Notes: generated from the letters alone by a model not told the origin. Counted from the first letter of the stretch, positions 41,346-50,124 are shown. The stretch is 64,000 bases of DNA from Candidatus Moraniibacteriota bacterium (GCA_026396175.1 JAPLXG010000013.1:1267-65266), one strand, 5' to 3'. Made by a program: numbers and translations.

Positions 41346-42119
41346 TTGCAAAAAATAATGTCTATCGGCGCAATTATCATCGGACTTCTGACCGGTTTCA
41401 TTTCGGCTTTTTTTGGCATTGGCGGTAGCAGTATCGACACCCCGCTCTTGCGTGTTTTTTTGCATGTCCCTGACTACATCGCGCTGGGCAGTCCCTTGCC
41501 CACAGCTCTGCTCACAATCGCAATAGCGCTCACCGTCTATTGGAAAAAACATTTGGTCAATTATCACATTCTCAAATGGAGTCTCGCCGGAGGAATCCCC
41601 GGCATAATTTTCGGCGCATATTTGTCGGGAAAATTTTCCGGACTATTTTTGATGCTTTTTAGCGCCTTGGTTTTGTTTTTCGTCGGAGTGAACTTTGTCT
41701 ACAAAAGATTCCGCAGCGCAGAAATTAATCAGAATTATCAAGCCCAAAAACCAATAAGCGCGAGCTATATCATTTTCGTTGCGTTTATCGCCAGTAGCAT
41801 CTCCGGCATCCTCGCCAACGGTGGCGGACTCCTGCTCATCCCGGCCTATGTTTTGCTTTTCAAACTGAAAATAAAAGAAGCGATTGCCACTTCTCTTTTA
41901 ACCGTAGCGGCAATGTTCATCCCCGCTTTTTTCATCCACTATTCCCTTGGCCACATCGACCTTGGCATCAGCGTGGCCATGGCGATTGGCGTCATTCCAA
42001 TGGCCTACATCGGCGCAAAAACCAATCTCGAAACAAAATCCAACACCATCCAACTACTTTTCGGCCTAATGCTCATCATCTTTTCCATCTACTTTTTTAT
42101 CTCGCAACTTTGGGGATAA
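41346..42119 (+). CDS. TauE/SafE (DUF81) family sulfite/anion exporter
   Basis: 257 aa, eight TM helices. FFGIGGS and GGGLLLIPAY motifs. The start may be the Met at 41358. Confidence 0.8.
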   Translation: MQKIMSIGAIIIGLLTGFISAFFGIGGSSIDTPLLRVFLHVPDYIALGSPLPTALLTIAIALTVYWKKHLVNYHILKWSLAGGIPGIIFGAYLSGKFSGLFLMLFSALVLFFVGVNFVYKRFRSAEINQNYQAQKPISASYIIFVAFIASSISGILANGGGLLLIPAYVLLFKLKIKEAIATSLLTVAAMFIPAFFIHYSLGHIDLGISVAMAIGVIPMAYIGAKTNLETKSNTIQLLFGLMLIIFSIYFFISQLWG

Positions 42120-42422
42120 AAAAAATCCCCCGTCCATTGGTTGGGCAGGGGTTCTAACATCGCTGTGTCAGGTTGGGGGACGAAGCTACATCGCTCCGTA
42201 AACGGCAGTCACAAAAAAGCTTGCTCCGACTATCAGCCGGAATAAATTAAAATTCTTCAAACTTTTTCACCTCCTTTCAAAAAAGAACTGCATAAGCAGA
42301 AAAAGAATTAAAAAAACAAAAACACCTAGAATTAGGTATTTCAATTTTTATTCTTTTCTAATTATTTACTAAGTTTTGCAGAGGATTGATGTAATAATCA
42401 ATCCTCATGATTTTGAGTTTAA

Positions 42423-42517
42423 TGGTGGCACCACCTGGACTTGAACCAGGAATCCTTCCGCCTAAGCCAGAGTGCTCGTAGCCTTACGAAATGCTCTACC
42501 GATTGAGCCATGGCGCC
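42423..42517 (-). tRNA. tRNA-like gene with encoded CCA and a greatly expanded anticodon region (identity undetermined)
   Basis: Acceptor GGCGCCA/TGGTGCC. D arm GCTC-AATCGGTA-GAGC. T arm CCTGG-TTCAAGT-CCAGG. The anticodon stem (TTTCG/CGGAA) would enclose 26 nt instead of 7. Confidence 0.45.
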
Positions 42518-42539
42518 ACAATAAACTTAAACTTTAGGT

Positions 42540-42625
42540 TGGAACTATCGAATGGATTTGAACCATTGCCCTGCTGGATTTTTTGGTTAATTGCCAGCCG
42601 CTCTACCAAGCTGAGCTACGATAGC
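42540..42625 (-). tRNA. tRNA-like gene with encoded CCA and a 16-nt anticodon loop (identity undetermined)
   Basis: Acceptor GCTATCG/CGATAGT. D arm GCTC-AGCTTGGTA-GAGC. Anticodon stem GCTGG/CCAGC enclosing CAATTAACCAAAAAAT. Variable loop AGGGC. T arm AATGG-TTCAAAT-CCATT. Confidence 0.5.
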
Positions 42626-43009
42626 ACACTACCTAAATTTCTGGGAAGAGTTTTAGTTCGGCGGGGTGGTCCCGCCGCAGACAAAAAACTCAGGTGTCCG
42701 ATAATACGGAAAACTCGTTCCCAGAGAATGGGATTTGGGAGGGGGTGGAAAAAACTAACGTAACCTTCTCCCCTCTTGACTCTATTCGAAAACCCTTCTC
42801 AGCCAAAGGCTCCAGGCAAAACATCGAAATCAAGCCAAGACCAACGCCAAAGATGTCTATTACAACAGTCACCGCGCGGGTGACCTATCGACGAATCCTT
42901 GGGTCAGTTTTATTGCTCCCAAAACTGTCAAAGATCAAAACTTAACAAACAATTTGACTAAAATACCTTAATATTGCGAAATATTAAGCTACCTTACTCG
43001 CAAATCATT

Positions 43010-43585
43010 CTAGCGCTTTGTGAAAAATATGTCAACACTCCGCACAACATCCGGCAATTCCAGGCAAGAATCCTCACCTTCAATCGCCCCGGAAAAATGC
43101 TTGGCATTGTGCTTAATTATTATTTCTGCATTAAGCTTTTCCCTGAAAATATCCGCGTATTTTAAATCTACATAGGGATCATCATCGGAATGAATCGCCA
43201 CGAATCCATTTTTTGATTTGGTTTTAATTTTTTCCAAATCAATCGGCGTTTCAAAAAAATTTCCAATTTCATCAAATCCCACATTTTCATTAAATCCTGC
43301 CACAAAAAACACGCCCCCAACTTTTTCATCTTCTTTTAGGTTTTCCAAATAACGCATAATCGTCGCACAACCAAGACTGTGGCCAACGAGAAACAACTCT
43401 TCATCTGGTTCGCCAACCACCTCCTGCAATTTCGGCACCCACTGATTCATTTTGGGCAAATCCGTCTCCGGAAAAGCCGGCACCTCAACCTGAAAACCTT
43501 TCCCCTCAAGTTCTTTTTTCACCCAAGGATACCAGCAATACTGCGGATAGCCTCCCCAACAATGGACGATAATAGCTCGTTTCAT
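43010..43585 (-). CDS. Serine hydrolase, RBBP9/YdeN (PF06821) family
   Basis: 191 aa. FLVGHSLGC nucleophile elbow. Conserved Asp and His near the C-terminus. Confidence 0.75.
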   Translation of the reverse strand: MKRAIIVHCWGGYPQYCWYPWVKKELEGKGFQVEVPAFPETDLPKMNQWVPKLQEVVGEPDEELFLVGHSLGCATIMRYLENLKEDEKVGGVFFVAGFNENVGFDEIGNFFETPIDLEKIKTKSKNGFVAIHSDDDPYVDLKYADIFREKLNAEIIIKHNAKHFSGAIEGEDSCLELPDVVRSVDIFFTKR

Positions 43586-43627
43586 AAATTTAGATATTTT
43601 GCAGTTCTATTGCGTCTTTGATAATTT

Positions 43628-44506
43628 TTAATGCTCAATGCCAATTTTCCAAACACCTTTTTCTAAGAAAGCTTCGATGGTTTGACGAGTCGCCTTGTTA
43701 ATCAGACTTGAATGTGAAAACTTGTTACTTTTGGCATATTCAACTAGAGTAATAATTTTTTTACCTTCTAGATATGCCAACCGCTTATGATAACTATTAG
43801 TCAAAGCTTTGCCCACTATTTCCTCCATAACATCAGTTGCGCCTTTCGCATCAAAATCTCGAAACGCTTCGTAGTATTTTTGCCGATCAATAAATTTTAT
43901 ATTTATTGGCACAAACCCTTCCCTGATTAGCAAATAATTATTAACGGCCCGTCCGATTCGGCCATTGCCATCACAAAATGGATGCGTATGCTCAAAAGCC
44001 AGATGCAATCTTGCTATGCGCTTAATAATATTTTCATGACTCTGAGCATTATATTCGGACAGCATTTTTTCCAAACGCTCTATGACCTCTTTCGGATTGG
44101 GCGCGATATGACTACCCACACGCACAAACTCATTTTCCGCTCTAAATCTTCCGGCGATATCATCACGAATATTGCTCAGGAGCATTTCGTGCAACGTTAA
44201 AATCACAGGAAGCGTCAGCTCTTGCTCTTTAGCCTTTTTGTCAATATACGAAACAACTCGTGCCAAATTCTTAGCTTCAAAAATTTCTCGCTCGCTAATG
44301 AAGCGATCCAAATCAATTTGCAAAAGTATCTTTTCCGTTTCTTCAAGCGTAAGCGTGCTATTTTCAATAGCATTGGAATTATAGACTTGCTCAGCCACTT
44401 CCGCCTCGGAAATAAGTTGAATAAGCGCTTCTTTCCCCGTGGAAGCTTTATAATACCGCTCGCGCAACGAGCTTATTTTATTGTACGCATTGAGTGTTTT
44501 TGTCAT
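43628..44506 (-). CDS. Fic family protein
   Basis: 292 aa. HPFCDGNGRIGR Fic motif. Confidence 0.8.
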   Translation of the reverse strand: MTKTLNAYNKISSLRERYYKASTGKEALIQLISEAEVAEQVYNSNAIENSTLTLEETEKILLQIDLDRFISEREIFEAKNLARVVSYIDKKAKEQELTLPVILTLHEMLLSNIRDDIAGRFRAENEFVRVGSHIAPNPKEVIERLEKMLSEYNAQSHENIIKRIARLHLAFEHTHPFCDGNGRIGRAVNNYLLIREGFVPINIKFIDRQKYYEAFRDFDAKGATDVMEEIVGKALTNSYHKRLAYLEGKKIITLVEYAKSNKFSHSSLINKATRQTIEAFLEKGVWKIGIEH

Positions 44507-44567
44507 ATACTAGTATTATACGCTTTTTCACGGTTTTGTCAACATAACCGTGAAAAATACCAAAAAA

Positions 44568-45230
44568 TCATACATTTTCACGGTTTTGACCATTGTTCAC
44601 CTTGAACATTTTTCCATGGCCAGGAATTATATAATCAGCAACTGCTAGCAGTTTTTTTCTGCTTTCAATCAGATCTTCCATATTCATTCCCTTGGCGTGA
44701 GAATGATCTTCCTTGTTCGTATCAACCACTTGCGCTTCACCGTCAACCCACCAAATAACGTCACCCGCGATAGCAACTTTGCCTTGCGGGGTGTCAACCA
44801 AAAGCGAAAGATGTTCAAGCACATGGCCTGGCGTTTCAATGATTTCAATATCTTTGCCTAGCGCATTTTTATCGAACACCGTCAGCAAGTCTTTATCATA
44901 GATTAAATTAGAATCGAAGGTGACGTACTTCGCTTTTTCAAAAATACCCGCAAGCAAAATATGGTCAGGATGGCAGTGAGACAAGAAAACGTAATCGATG
45001 TCATCTGTGGTCAAGTTCTCACCGTGCAATGCTTCCAATAATTGTTGACGATTGCATCCCGGATCAGTGATTATTTTTTTGTCGTCAGTCGTGATCAAAC
45101 AAGTAGTCGAACTGGCTATCCAACCATTCTCAAGCTCTTTTGCATATCCTTCGATTAAAACTTTTATTGTTGTCATAGCGTTTAGGAAAAAACTCTTAAA
45201 AATTCGTTGTTTTCGCACTAGGTAAGTCAA
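44568..45230 (-). CDS. MBL-fold metallo-hydrolase
   Basis: 220 aa. LSHCHPDH, and a downstream PGH motif. Confidence 0.75.
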   Translation of the reverse strand: MTYLVRKQRIFKSFFLNAMTTIKVLIEGYAKELENGWIASSTTCLITTDDKKIITDPGCNRQQLLEALHGENLTTDDIDYVFLSHCHPDHILLAGIFEKAKYVTFDSNLIYDKDLLTVFDKNALGKDIEIIETPGHVLEHLSLLVDTPQGKVAIAGDVIWWVDGEAQVVDTNKEDHSHAKGMNMEDLIESRKKLLAVADYIIPGHGKMFKVNNGQNRENV

Positions 45231-45340
45231 AAATGGCAGATATTTGATGTTATCGGATGTATTGTTCTTTTGCAGATTTCTTCCTTGTTAAAATGCTTTT
45301 AGGGGGAGGAAAGAATTTTATCTTTCCTTTTAATTTTGGT

Positions 45341-45508
45341 TTATCTAAACCTTTTTAGTTTAAAGAACATTTGAGTTATTATTCCAGCTACCATCATCAC
45401 TGCTCCGACAATAGTAAGTATCTGTGATTTATTGCCGAAATATATCGCACCTAACAGTCCAATAATCATAGACACGTTTGCAATATTTTTAATTCCTCGT
45501 TCTGTCAT
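45341..45508 (-). CDS. Small hypothetical membrane protein (55 aa)
   Basis: MTERGIKNIANVSMIIGLLGAIYFGNKSQILTIVGAVMMVAGIITQMFFKLKRFR. Read by hand. Confidence 0.3.
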   Translation of the reverse strand: MTERGIKNIANVSMIIGLLGAIYFGNKSQILTIVGAVMMVAGIITQMFFKLKRFR

Positions 45509-45577
45509 AATCTCCTCCTTTCTCCTCCCCTAAAAGCATTCTAATCTTTTATTCAATTATTCAAGGACAAAATTATT

Positions 45578-45982
45578 TTATTTCTTGTTTTTAACAAAGA
45601 ATTTCAGATCTTTTACCGTTTTTTCTGTCAGATCATAACTGAAAACTTTCTCTAATGACACCCATTCAAAATCCGCTCCTTCGCCCAATTTCATTTCATC
45701 CTTCCTTAGATCACTTTCGACATAAAAAATATGCCTATAAATATTAAGTTCCTCGTTGAGATAATCGCATAAATAAATAACCCGATCTTCGGATATTTCA
45801 ATATTCAACTCCTCCTTCATTTCCCGCGTAAATGTTTCCTTGGGTCTTTCGTCTTTCTCTCTTGTTCCTCCAAAAAACGCCCAGGAATTGGGATTGAACT
45901 TTGTATTTGAATCACGTTTGTGCAATAAAACGGAATTATTTTGTGGATTATATAGGAATCCGCCTGACCAAAATTTTTCCAT
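45578..45982 (-). CDS. NUDIX hydrolase
   Basis: 134 aa. NUDIX box GGTREKDERPKETFTREMKEELNIE. Confidence 0.75.
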   Translation of the reverse strand: MEKFWSGGFLYNPQNNSVLLHKRDSNTKFNPNSWAFFGGTREKDERPKETFTREMKEELNIEISEDRVIYLCDYLNEELNIYRHIFYVESDLRKDEMKLGEGADFEWVSLEKVFSYDLTEKTVKDLKFFVKNKK

Positions 45983-46070
45983 AAAAAATAAATTTGAGAC
46001 GCAAATTAGATAAGAAAGCCAAAAATCATTACGAGCAGTTTAACGCCAACCATTATTACTTCCACCATTC

Positions 46071-46610
46071 CTACCAGTCGGTATTTTCCGCAATAACCTT
46101 TCCAGCCTGAACTATTCTAATATTTCCATATTCCTTTTCCACTTCCTGAATTCCCTTCAATGTGAATTCTTTCCACAGCCTTCTTTTTGTTGCTCTAATC
46201 TCCTCTGTTTTTCCAGTAATACCTACGTGTTTTTCATACATGCTAGATAGTTTGTCATAGAGAAGCAGTAACTTAATGAAGGCACTCTTGCTAGGATACA
46301 ACTCTATCGCCTGTTGGAAATTTTCAAAGGTTAGCTCTTTCACAACGTCCTTTACTTCTAGCTCAACCCATTCTGGTAACTGAAGTGAAGTGTCCTCCAA
46401 AACATCATGCAAAATCAAAGCCTTGAATCCCAGCTCTCTTTGCTCATAGGGAACCTGCGTGTCAGCAATCAACATTGAAGCACACCATAACGGATGCATT
46501 ATATATGGCACCTTACCATCCTGACGATATGCTTGGTTGGTTATGTTATTCTCCTGATAGGCAGAATAAGCAAAATCCAGATATTTTTTTAGTTCTTCTG
46601 ATTTAATCAT
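46071..46610 (-). CDS. HD domain protein (paralog of 53291..53842)
   Basis: 179 aa. HPLWCA ... ALILHDVLEDT. About 75% aa identity to the second copy. Confidence 0.7.
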   Translation of the reverse strand: MIKSEELKKYLDFAYSAYQENNITNQAYRQDGKVPYIMHPLWCASMLIADTQVPYEQRELGFKALILHDVLEDTSLQLPEWVELEVKDVVKELTFENFQQAIELYPSKSAFIKLLLLYDKLSSMYEKHVGITGKTEEIRATKRRLWKEFTLKGIQEVEKEYGNIRIVQAGKVIAENTDW

Positions 46611-46636
46611 AAATTTTTATTTTCTATTCTTTAGAT

Positions 46637-47695
46637 TTATCCAAAATAATTTTCCACCGCAAACTCAAACTGTTTCAAAAACAGTTCTTTGAAATATGAG
46701 ATATTATTCTGCTCATAAAATAATAACGTCGCCTTTTTGTATTCACCTTCATCCATACTGCGATAAGAGAGAGGGCAAGAATTAAATGATTGCAAAATAG
46801 CGTTGCCACCCAAACGACGGGTACGCTTGTTGCCATCAACGAACGGCTGGATATAGGCGACGAGTAGCATCAGGATAATTGCTTTCTCAAAAACATCCTT
46901 GGTCTCGTTCACCAACTTGCAAGTTTTTTCCAAGGCCTCTTTTATCTGAAACTCATTGTCTAGCGGTTTGTAATTTGTGCCAGTTATTCCCACCAGAGTT
47001 TTTCTCAAGTTTTTTGTCACATTCAATCCATCCACCAGCAGAGAATGAATATTTTCTATCTTCGACACAGATATGGATTGAAACTCATTTTTATTGCTTC
47101 CGATATAATCCAAGGTCTTTTTATGATTGAGAATCATAACCGCTTCTTCCTTGGAATGACCTTCGGCTTCTTGTTGGTTTTTAATTAATTGCTCGGTTTC
47201 AAGAAGGCTATAGGTATTGCCCTCAATTTTTGACGATTTCCAACTGAAATCGATATTTAACCGCTCTATCTCTTTTTTTAATGCATCAGCTGGAATATCT
47301 TTTATCTTATCTTGATAAACTCCATTCAGCTCAGAGAGTTTCTTTCTTTCAGCATCAGTAAAAATATTTTTCAGTTGGTTGAAAATATCAAAATTAAACT
47401 TTTTGTTAATTTTCCTCTGGTCAAGATCTTGGGCAAAATATTTTTCAACATCAATCTTTTTTATAATCGGATATCTAGAAGAAAGTTGATAGCTAACAGC
47501 TCGCCCAGCTGTTCCTTGTCTTTCTAGCAAATTAAGTTCCAGCATTTTTTCCAAATCTCGGGAAATAGTCATTCTAGTCACCTGGCCCAATTCCTTGCCA
47601 ATATGCTCAACTATTTGACCCACAGAAACATGCTCTTTTTCTTCGACAAGAGAGAGAATAATTTCTTGCCTGCTGTTTAATTTTTCAGTTTTCAT
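46637..47695 (-). CDS. Fic family protein with N-terminal winged-HTH (DeoR-like)
   Basis: 352 aa. N-terminal HTH. Fic motif QPFVDGNKRTRR. Confidence 0.8.
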   Translation of the reverse strand: MKTEKLNSRQEIILSLVEEKEHVSVGQIVEHIGKELGQVTRMTISRDLEKMLELNLLERQGTAGRAVSYQLSSRYPIIKKIDVEKYFAQDLDQRKINKKFNFDIFNQLKNIFTDAERKKLSELNGVYQDKIKDIPADALKKEIERLNIDFSWKSSKIEGNTYSLLETEQLIKNQQEAEGHSKEEAVMILNHKKTLDYIGSNKNEFQSISVSKIENIHSLLVDGLNVTKNLRKTLVGITGTNYKPLDNEFQIKEALEKTCKLVNETKDVFEKAIILMLLVAYIQPFVDGNKRTRRLGGNAILQSFNSCPLSYRSMDEGEYKKATLLFYEQNNISYFKELFLKQFEFAVENYFG

Positions 47696-48194
47696 ATTTG
47701 TGTAATAGTAACATTTTTATGCCTTAAATGTAACATTTATGTTACAATCGGTCAACTAAAATACCGCCTATTTCTCCAAAATGGCTGATTTAAGCCCTAA
47801 TTATTGCAACATTCTAATCTTCCAATTTCCAGCGAGCCAACACAAAAAACACCCTGCCTACCGGCAGGCAGGCATTCAAGGTGTTTTTAATAAAGTTTAC
47901 CCTGTTAAATGCTCCGGGTACGGAATTTAACGGGGTAAATCACAAACTTTTGCGATTAGTCCAAAAAACGAAGTCTAAATCCTCTGAGAGATTCATTACT
48001 GAATCAATGCGTAAGGTGTACAATACCTACGGCTACAGAATTATTTAGCTCTGTTACACTTAGCTGTTACCCTGGATTGCTCCAAAATTACGACCAGCAA
48101 GTAAAATCCACATTCCACAACATTTAGTTTGACCCAAATGTCTTCCGCCAACTGGCGGGGTGCAATGCTCTAAGATTCTACCAATATCTCCCTA

Positions 48195-50124
<1,930 letters not shown>

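Follow-up and report, generated by a model that had tools for sequence, protein, structure and literature searches.

Tandem tRNA-like genes with enlarged anticodon loops on an accessory segment of a Moranbacteria genome

INTRODUCTION

Lak megaphages carry transfer RNA (tRNA) genes with “enigmatic introns” (Devoto et al. 2019 [PMC6784885]), and irregular tRNA-like sequences that do not work in translation have been tied to transposable elements and toxin-antitoxin systems (PMC7609411). Here we describe a tandem pair of tRNA-like genes, referred to as tRNA2 and tRNA1 in their 5′-to-3′ order on the minus strand, in which the 7-nucleotide (nt) anticodon loop is replaced by 16 and 26 nt, respectively. 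They lie in a 64,000-nt stretch of DNA (GCA_026396175.1 JAPLXG010000013.1:1267-65266), called the window below and numbered from its first letter. The host is a Moranbacteria bacterium, a member of the candidate phyla radiation (CPR). We tentatively read the pair, from its sequence, as encoding accessory tRNA-shaped RNAs that would be unable to decode. What is new is a variant of aberrant tRNA-like genes on accessory DNA, a kind that is already known.

The Lak genes, like those described here, belong to the bacterial and phage world and have unexplained insertions, and standard bacterial prediction leaves them unclassified. They differ in that isotype and anticodon can be assigned once an intron is allowed and in that intron-less alleles exist, neither of which holds for the pair. 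The irregular tRNA-like sequences share with the pair a non-canonical form, a place on accessory DNA, a sometimes tandem arrangement, and an inability to be used in translation. However, they have an 8/4 or 9/3 acceptor/T geometry and long variable arms or extra loops, whereas the pair has a strictly canonical 7/5 class I body in which only the anticodon loop is aberrant. Measured against that group, the pair has the accessory location beside defense- or toxin-type genes but neither the 8/4 or 9/3 geometry nor a long variable arm.

Non-decoding tRNA mimics include the tRNA-like domain of tmRNA, the bacterial Y RNA YrlA, mascRNA, and the tRNA-Other of Bacillus cereus. The resemblance to the pair lies in a tRNA-like acceptor/T-arm module, tRNA-type end processing, and the lack of a normal anticodon function. 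YrlA differs in its permuted topology and its pairing with Rsr, and tmRNA differs in its mRNA domain and SmpB, whereas in the pair the D arm and the anticodon stem are also fully kept. Rfam gave no match to the tmRNA or Y RNA families in the pair, and no SmpB or TROVE domain was found among the scanned open reading frames (ORFs) of the window, which comprise those of at least 110 amino acids (aa) plus the ORFs around the pair.

RESULTS AND DISCUSSION

Two intact tRNA bodies without a canonical anticodon loop

In the whole 64-kb window, ARAGORN calls just two tRNA genes, tRNA2 at 42540 to 42625 and tRNA1 at 42423 to 42517, each on the minus strand. It assigns tRNA1 no valid anticodon and forces tRNA2 to “Asn att.” The Rfam tRNA model (RF00005; gathering score, 29) covers model positions 1 to 71 in both genes, with 53.0 bits for tRNA2, 49.1 bits for tRNA1, and an Infernal E value of ~1e-8 for each, and the sole large insertion in either alignment is in the anticodon loop (15 nt in tRNA2 and 26 nt in tRNA1). 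The two programs therefore agree with the initial annotation, in which two tandem minus-strand tRNA-like genes had been described at these positions, and the alignment and the sequence bear out the acceptor, D, and T arms, the encoded CCA, and the 16- and 26-nt loops that it had listed.

From 5′ to 3′, tRNA2 is laid out as GCUAUCG UA GCUC AGCUUGGUA GAGC G GCUGG CAAUUAACCAAAAAAU CCAGC AGGGC AAUGG UUCAAAU CCAUU CGAUAGU U CCA, and tRNA1 is laid out as GGCGCCA UG GCUC AAUCGGUA GAGC A UUUCG UAAGGCUACGAGCACUCUGGCUUAGG CGGAA GGAUU CCUGG UUCAAGU CCAGG UGGUGCC A CCA. Both have a 7-bp acceptor stem, a GCUC/GAGC D stem, a 5-bp anticodon stem, a UUCAA(A/G)U T loop, and an encoded CCA; the 5-nt variable loop and the 7/5 acceptor/T geometry are those of a class I body. 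All 21 of 21 stem pairs form in each gene, with one G-U pair in each acceptor stem and one in the anticodon stem of tRNA1. The nucleotides of the tertiary contacts (U8, A14, G18, G19, A21, G53, U54, U55, C56, A58, and C61) are all kept in both genes, and the 15:48 pair covaries between them, being G15:C48 in tRNA2 and A15:U48 in tRNA1. A canonical 7-nt anticodon loop with U33 and a purine at position 37 is present in neither.

The 26-nt insert of tRNA1 can lengthen the anticodon arm into an irregular hairpin with a GCAC cap. The inner UAAG/CUUA pairing that had been pointed out for this insert does exist, but the fold is no better than that of shuffled sequence (z = −0.5 to −1.2).

As the window derives from a metagenome-assembled genome, one may ask whether the resemblance to tRNA arose by chance or whether an assembly or sequencing error added the extra bases. 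Three further assemblies (L001, L002, and L136), which come from separate sequencing runs, carry the pair with 100% identity, and it is therefore not an assembly artifact; with two independent programs calling both genes at the E values given above, the chance of an artifact of any of these kinds is negligible.

No single excision restores a decoding loop

In archaeal and eukaryal tRNAs whose introns are removed at a bulge-helix-bulge motif by an EndA-type endonuclease, extra nucleotides are likewise found in the anticodon arm of a normal cloverleaf. The inserts described here exceed a 7-nt loop by 9 nt (tRNA2) and 19 to 20 nt (tRNA1), and the length range of short archaeal introns also fits them. 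We removed, in turn, every possible contiguous segment between the D and T stems and scored as a pass any product that regained a 5-bp stem and a loop of 7 nt having U33 and purine 37. For tRNA2, no deletion gave U33 together with four or more stem pairs. For tRNA1, the sole product lies in a shifted register, with the loop CUUAGGC, a variable loop of 4 nt, and a stem closed by a G-G mismatch. It would pair a class I body with a Leu-UAG loop, a combination that, to our knowledge, is not used by bacteria. That no simple deletion yields a U33 loop, as first noted from the sequence, thus stands for tRNA2 and, outside this mismatched register, for tRNA1. The same test resolved 83 of the 86 archaeal intron tRNAs (96%) among the matches listed from 185,579 species genomes. 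Because no canonical loop is obtained, decoding appears to be impossible for either gene as encoded or after any single excision. A CUACGAG heptamer in the tRNA1 insert was considered as an Arg-ACG loop and rejected, as it has no flanking stem and A20 is absent.

Other hallmarks of intron-bearing tRNAs are also missing. A bulge-helix-bulge motif (3-nt bulge, 4-bp helix, and 3-nt bulge) was found in neither gene by a script of moderate sensitivity, which recognizes the strict motif in 41 of 98 archaeal matches listed, and the unstructured 16-nt loop of tRNA2 is too short to hold one. Pfam identified no splicing endonuclease and no RtcB-type RNA ligase among the scanned ORFs. The pair differs from the archaeal and eukaryal cases in these respects, in the failure to restore U33 and purine 37, and in its bacterial host. 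Group I introns are known in bacterial tRNA anticodon loops, where they exceed 200 nt and have a catalytic core. As in the pair, a bacterial tRNA gene is then interrupted within the anticodon loop, but inserts of 9 and 19 nt fall short of such introns by an order of magnitude, and Rfam, scanned permissively over positions 42000 to 48300, detected no intron family, matching only the two tRNAs and the end of the 16S rRNA gene. Since the excision test, the bulge-helix-bulge search, the insert lengths, and the endonuclease/ligase scan were all negative, the analogy with intron-bearing tRNAs is not supported by the sequence. Of the two options raised in the initial annotation, unusual processing as in intron-bearing tRNAs is weakened, whereas tRNA-derived elements are favored.

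It could still be that both are true tRNAs interrupted by short sequences of a new kind (9 and 19 to 20 nt), which machinery so far undescribed in bacteria would excise from the transcripts, in parallel with the rRNA insertions of the CPR and the Lak introns. Large 16S insertions are typical of the CPR and are reported to be absent from transcripts (PMC9297842), and the 16S gene of this very genome (48196 to 50129, minus strand) has 1,934 nt compared with 1,533 nt in the model, owing to three AT-rich insertions that total ~400 nt. The unexplained introns of the Lak tRNAs (PMC6784885) would point the same way, as would the intact bodies and encoded CCA of the pair, phage tRNA-Gln-like genes with 15- to 16-nt loops that recur in IMG/VR, and a Parcubacteria tRNA gene (L044) in which removal of a 21-nt hairpin insert leaves a clean Lys-UUU loop. 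However, no excision in tRNA2 leaves U33, and the one product of tRNA1 has a mismatched stem and a Leu-UAG loop; 96% of the listed archaeal intron tRNAs pass the same test. The lack of a bulge-helix-bulge motif and of an endonuclease or ligase among the scanned ORFs argues against it too, and essential isoacceptors would be conserved, whereas the pair is absent from the TauE loci of relatives and from exact-pattern scans (see below). We therefore consider an intervening sequence of this kind quite improbable. No report of short anticodon-loop inserts in CPR tRNAs was found in the literature.

The pair belongs to a lineage-specific segment

The pair is the last element of a 5.6-kb segment (Table 1) and lies directly upstream of an older terminator-like hairpin. 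From that end, the segment contains tRNA1, tRNA2, and genes for a Ser_hydrolase, a SoFic-like Fic protein, an MBL-fold protein, a NUDIX protein, a 179-aa protein, and an HTH-Fic protein. In a relative (L137), the region downstream of the 16S gene (window positions 47935 to 48207) is joined to the terminator region (42300 to 42347) with only ~80 to 110 nt between them, and the terminator-like hairpin is kept there directly after the 16S-downstream region. Because L137 joins both flanks, positions 42348 to 47934 represent a lineage-specific segment. A second relative (L138) has the order polysaccharide deacetylase, TauE, small gene, HTH-Fic, and 16S-downstream region, as in the window, without the tRNAs and the four genes next to them.

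TauE is shared with four close relatives at 81 to 85% protein identity, and the deacetylase-TauE order is conserved; no tRNA was found within 10 kb of TauE in L137, L138, L139, or L260/L261. Homologues of the Ser_hydrolase are 72 to 86% identical, and the six contigs compared differ in gene order and hold no tRNA. At the borders of the segment there are no att-like direct repeats and no repeated tRNA fragments, and no integrase was found. The segment thus resembles an insertion at a recombination hot spot more than it does a classical integrative element. The pair is, as judged from these comparisons, accessory, strain-specific, and outside the core tRNA set.

About 260 nt downstream of the 16S gene are conserved (window, 47935 to 48207; L137, 13432 to 13657; L138, 12696 to 12762). 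In L137, this region is preceded by only the last ~12 nt of a 16S gene (CACCTCCTTTCT), and no small-subunit rRNA match was found anywhere in the 20-kb L137 locus.

Relatives of the pair were sought by exact-pattern scans, using patterns that were all confirmed to match the window itself. The tandem-junction pattern had 0 matches in the 185,579 species genomes and in the JGI metagenomes. The tRNA1 core (D stem, anticodon stem, any 7- to 37-nt loop, and variable loop) had 0 matches in the JGI metagenomes and in IMG/VR, the tRNA2 core had 0 in IMG/VR, and the 3′ halves of both genes had 0 in IMG/VR. The JGI metagenomes do contain close Moranbacteria relatives, and the absence of the tRNA1 core from them indicates that tRNA1 was not copied recently from a conserved host tRNA. 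The accessory status, together with the lack of relatives for the tested patterns, favors tRNA-derived non-decoding elements over essential intron tRNAs.

Isotype and the possibility of recent inactivation

The identity of the two genes could not be assigned at the outset, and this has not changed. BLAST against annotated phage tRNAs gave a mixture of Asn, Met, Pro, Thr, and Ile matches and no assignment, and in a nearest-neighbor comparison with the 171 labeled insert-bearing tRNAs in the matches listed, no isotype stands out. The loop of tRNA2 starts with CAAUUAA, in which U36, A37, and A38 are as in ANN decoders but positions 33 and 34 are A. The body closest to tRNA2 in the sampled set is an archaeal tRNA-Asn(GUU) (L103; 78% identity), which has the same GCUGG anticodon stem and a loop starting with CUGUUAACCAA; the likeness rests mainly on that stem and hence on few positions. 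The tRNA2 loop also resembles one of the 16S insertions, but no more than expected by chance.

These similarities bear on the view that both are recently disabled tRNA genes (pseudogenes) that arrived with the accessory segment or were duplicated into it. Small insertions and substitutions in the loop would have inactivated them, possibly under selection against foreign decoders, and the rest of each gene would not yet have decayed. The start of the tRNA2 loop resembles an ANN-decoder loop (N-U-N-N-U-A-A) in which U33 and position 34 have been changed, as would fit the “Asn att” forced by ARAGORN and the archaeal tRNA-Asn(GUU) as the closest body. An essential element, a usable anticodon loop, is lost, the genes are lineage-specific and absent at the matching place in relatives, and the inserts have no significant structure or conservation, all of which would be expected of disabled genes. 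On the other hand, the isotype similarity is weak and not specific, no parental copy of tRNA1 was found, its core being absent from the JGI metagenomes; the 64-kb window has no other tRNA. It would be odd for neutral decay to alter two different bodies in one and the same loop and leave 21 of 21 stem pairs and the tertiary nucleotides intact; there are no signs of decay elsewhere, and the model scores are far above threshold. CPR genomes, moreover, are small and rarely retain dead genes. Recent inactivation is, in our judgment, the main rival, somewhat less probable than the non-decoding reading given above.

tRNA-shaped RNAs that may act without decoding

The preferred reading, that the pair encodes accessory tRNA-shaped RNAs unable to decode, starts from the same contrast: a change confined to the same loop in two unrelated and intact bodies is unlike random decay. 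The pair would be transcribed as one unit ending at the hairpin and U run at 42310 to 42337, and its ends would mature as in a tRNA, with RNase P cutting on the 5′ side and the CCA already encoded. The RNAs may then fold into an L shape and serve as mimics through their tRNA-like surfaces, binding or occupying proteins that recognize tRNA bodies or CCA ends while staying out of decoding. Possible targets would be tRNA-targeting toxins or nucleases, modification enzymes, and EF-Tu-linked factors. Genes in the neighborhood match the candidate defense families SoFic/PDC-S04, PDC-S07, PDC-S01, and PDC-S27, plus Mrr and DpnI. The sequence of the pair is also stable, with four assemblies identical, and viral contigs often carry genes of a similar kind (see below). 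The literature on SoFic ties the enzyme to EF-Tu and not to RNA, and no relative of the Fic neighbor was found among the viral contigs.

Several points weigh against this proposal. The promoter-like site is a consensus match 380 nt before tRNA2. The link to the neighboring Fic, NUDIX, and MBL genes is one of adjacency only. The tRNA1 insert, as noted above, folds no better than shuffled sequence, and because the exact-pattern scans found no relatives, there is no covariation or conservation that would indicate selection on the enlarged loops. These scans require exact matches, and the tRNA2 core was scanned in viral contigs only, so that relatives may have been missed. Finally, intact bodies would be expected equally after a very recent disabling.

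Flanking elements and the host locus

The features of the pair and its surroundings are collected in Table 1.

TABLE 1 Positions of the tRNA-like pair and neighboring features in the window
Feature	Position	Strand	Basis
Terminator-like hairpin ACCUA-AUUC-UAGGU followed by a U run	42310..42337	−	Sequence; window 42300-42347 matches L137 13303-13351 (BLAST)
Lineage-specific 5.6-kb segment with the tRNA-like pair at its downstream edge	42348..47934		BLAST: L137 joins both flanks
10-bp perfect hairpin, 17 nt past the CCA of tRNA1	42381..42406		Sequence
tRNA-like gene 1 (tRNA1), 95 nt including encoded CCA; discriminator A73, G4-U69	42423..42517	−	ARAGORN, RF00005, sequence
26-nt insert UAAGGCUACGAGCACUCUGGCUUAGG, closed by UUUCG/CGGAA	42461..42486	−	Sequence, RF00005
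22-nt spacer separating tRNA2 and tRNA1	42518..42539	−	ARAGORN coordinates, sequence
tRNA-like gene 2 (tRNA2), 86 nt including encoded CCA; discriminator U73, G1-U72	42540..42625	−	ARAGORN, RF00005, sequence
16-nt A-rich loop CAAUUAACCAAAAAAU, closed by GCUGG/CCAGC, in place of the 7-nt anticodon loop	42578..42593	−	Centroid fold: unpaired
Hairpin-rich stretch, possible leader, from promoter-like site to tRNA2	42626..43005	−	Fold z = −4.65
Best upstream promoter-like site: TTGACA, 17-nt spacer, TAGAAT (11/12 matches)	43007..43035	−	Consensus match only

Structure is unusually strong in the stretch that leads from the promoter-like site to tRNA2, and the pair sits directly before a conserved terminator-like hairpin. 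Both observations could fit a different function, in which the two genes would be tRNA-shaped processing handles whose RNase P cut sites define the ends of flanking RNAs, such as the 380-nt upstream stretch. Precedents are mascRNA for MALAT1 and the tRNAs in mitochondrial transcripts, and such a role needs no anticodon. However, the opposite strand of the upstream stretch folds nearly as well (z = −3.65 versus −4.65), which suggests that the signal may come from generic inverted repeats, and a tandem pair with an encoded CCA would be superfluous for the role. Neither this stretch nor the intergenic stretch at 42120 to 42422 has an Rfam match or is conserved in relatives, and the upstream stretch has no BLAST match in L137 to L139. 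We regard processing handles as very improbable.

On the other side of the pair, positions 42120 to 42422 (minus strand) also fold far better than shuffled sequences (z = −6.2). A small ORF for a hydrophobic peptide, with a good ribosome-binding site, follows the terminator at ~42189 to 42260 (minus strand; LKNFNLFRLIVGASFFVTAVYGAM), and a similar ORF is found in L137 (13171 to 13263, minus strand).

Housekeeping genes, encoding RNase III, NusB, NrdD, SerRS, a class II aminoacyl-tRNA synthetase, GreA, PBP2, and MreCD, occupy the two ends of the window. A cluster of defense and accessory genes at ~29.7 to 47.7 kb adjoins the 16S gene. It encodes Bro-N, an HTH-SocA(Panacea) antitoxin-like protein, Mrr, DpnI, the PDC-S01 and PDC-S27 ATPases, and an HD protein, along with two SoFic/PDC-S04-like Fic proteins, the PDC-S07 NUDIX protein, and the MBL-fold protein, which has a weak Apyc1-like match. 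The three insertions in the 16S gene lie at variable-helix positions (~49935 to 50055, 49425 to 49585, and 48565 to 48752), and the middle one is made up of TTTTCAA and GAAATTA units in tandem, which might form a long AU helix by pairing with each other. A 23S gene was not found in the 64-kb window.

Aberrant anticodon loops in other genomes and viruses

A general pattern for class I tRNAs with extra bases between the D arm and the T loop was used as a calibration and not as a census. The matches listed from the species genomes were mostly archaeal intron tRNAs. IMG/VR gave at least 120 matches, and 66 of those listed have paired acceptor and anticodon stems; among these well-formed genes, 33 have no recoverable anticodon loop. 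Several IMG/VR genes, 81 to 82 nt long, were confirmed by the Rfam tRNA model, and some of the matches represent ordinary introns, of eukaryote or archaeal type, in giant or archaeal viruses. Since about half of the sampled well-formed viral genes with extra bases lack a recoverable anticodon loop, these results suggest that the question is broader than one locus.

It is conceivable, if doubtful, that anticodon-less tRNA mimics with a perfect body, a CCA end, and an enlarged loop that does not decode form a widespread and so far unrecognized class on defense islands and phage genomes. In the conflict between phage and host, they might then serve enzymes directed at tRNA as bait, decoy, or regulator, with the Moranbacteria pair as the cellular example and the 33 IMG/VR genes as the phage-side examples.

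Among the viral matches, Gln-like bodies (U1:A72 and G73) with U-rich loops of 15 to 16 nt, e.g., UUUUUUGAAGGUUUUA, are found on six phage contigs (L145, L169, L181, L192, L210, and L229), with U runs that differ in length from contig to contig. Three viral tRNA-like genes (L235, L259, and L167) have different stems and a common, conserved insert of ~34 nt, CCCUCAYGGYRAAGGRCC..AAACGC.GGGAAUAA, which is either a module that moves between tRNA bodies or a long variable arm misparsed as an anticodon-loop insert.

The Parcubacteria gene mentioned above (L044, 2799 to 2895, minus strand; Parcubacteria group bacterium FeB_17) has a 28-nt anticodon “loop” with a significant 8-bp hairpin (z = −2.95), and removal of 21 nt leaves the loop GUUUUAA. 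Its sequence makes it a candidate for a genuine short intervening sequence at position 31/32 to 32/33 in a bacterium. Class I tRNA-like genes with loops of the form CUGUAG...GU(C/A)AU occur in three metagenome-assembled genomes labeled Dysgonomonas, Brevinema, and gammaproteobacterium (L032, 1625 to 1710 and 2777 to 2864; L089, 739 to 826; and L098, 462 to 544). These loops resemble the tRNA-Tyr(GUA) introns of giant-virus contigs and may represent contamination, viral DNA, or something new.

Implications

If the genes of the pair are dead, this is an ordinary case, showing how gene finders report aberrant tRNAs in metagenome-assembled genomes. If the inserts are removed, bacterial tRNA splicing by an unexplained mechanism would be at hand, with a bearing on the likewise unexplained insertions in CPR rRNA genes and megaphage tRNAs. 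If the RNAs are made and stable, tRNA bodies would have been kept for a non-decoding role in a minimal-genome bacterium beside defense-type genes. In the conflict between phages and their hosts, tRNAs are a major point of attack, as with anticodon nucleases, PARIS, retron effectors, and tRNA-tail cleavage, and a tRNA-shaped decoy or sensor would, if this is true, be a new kind of player there.

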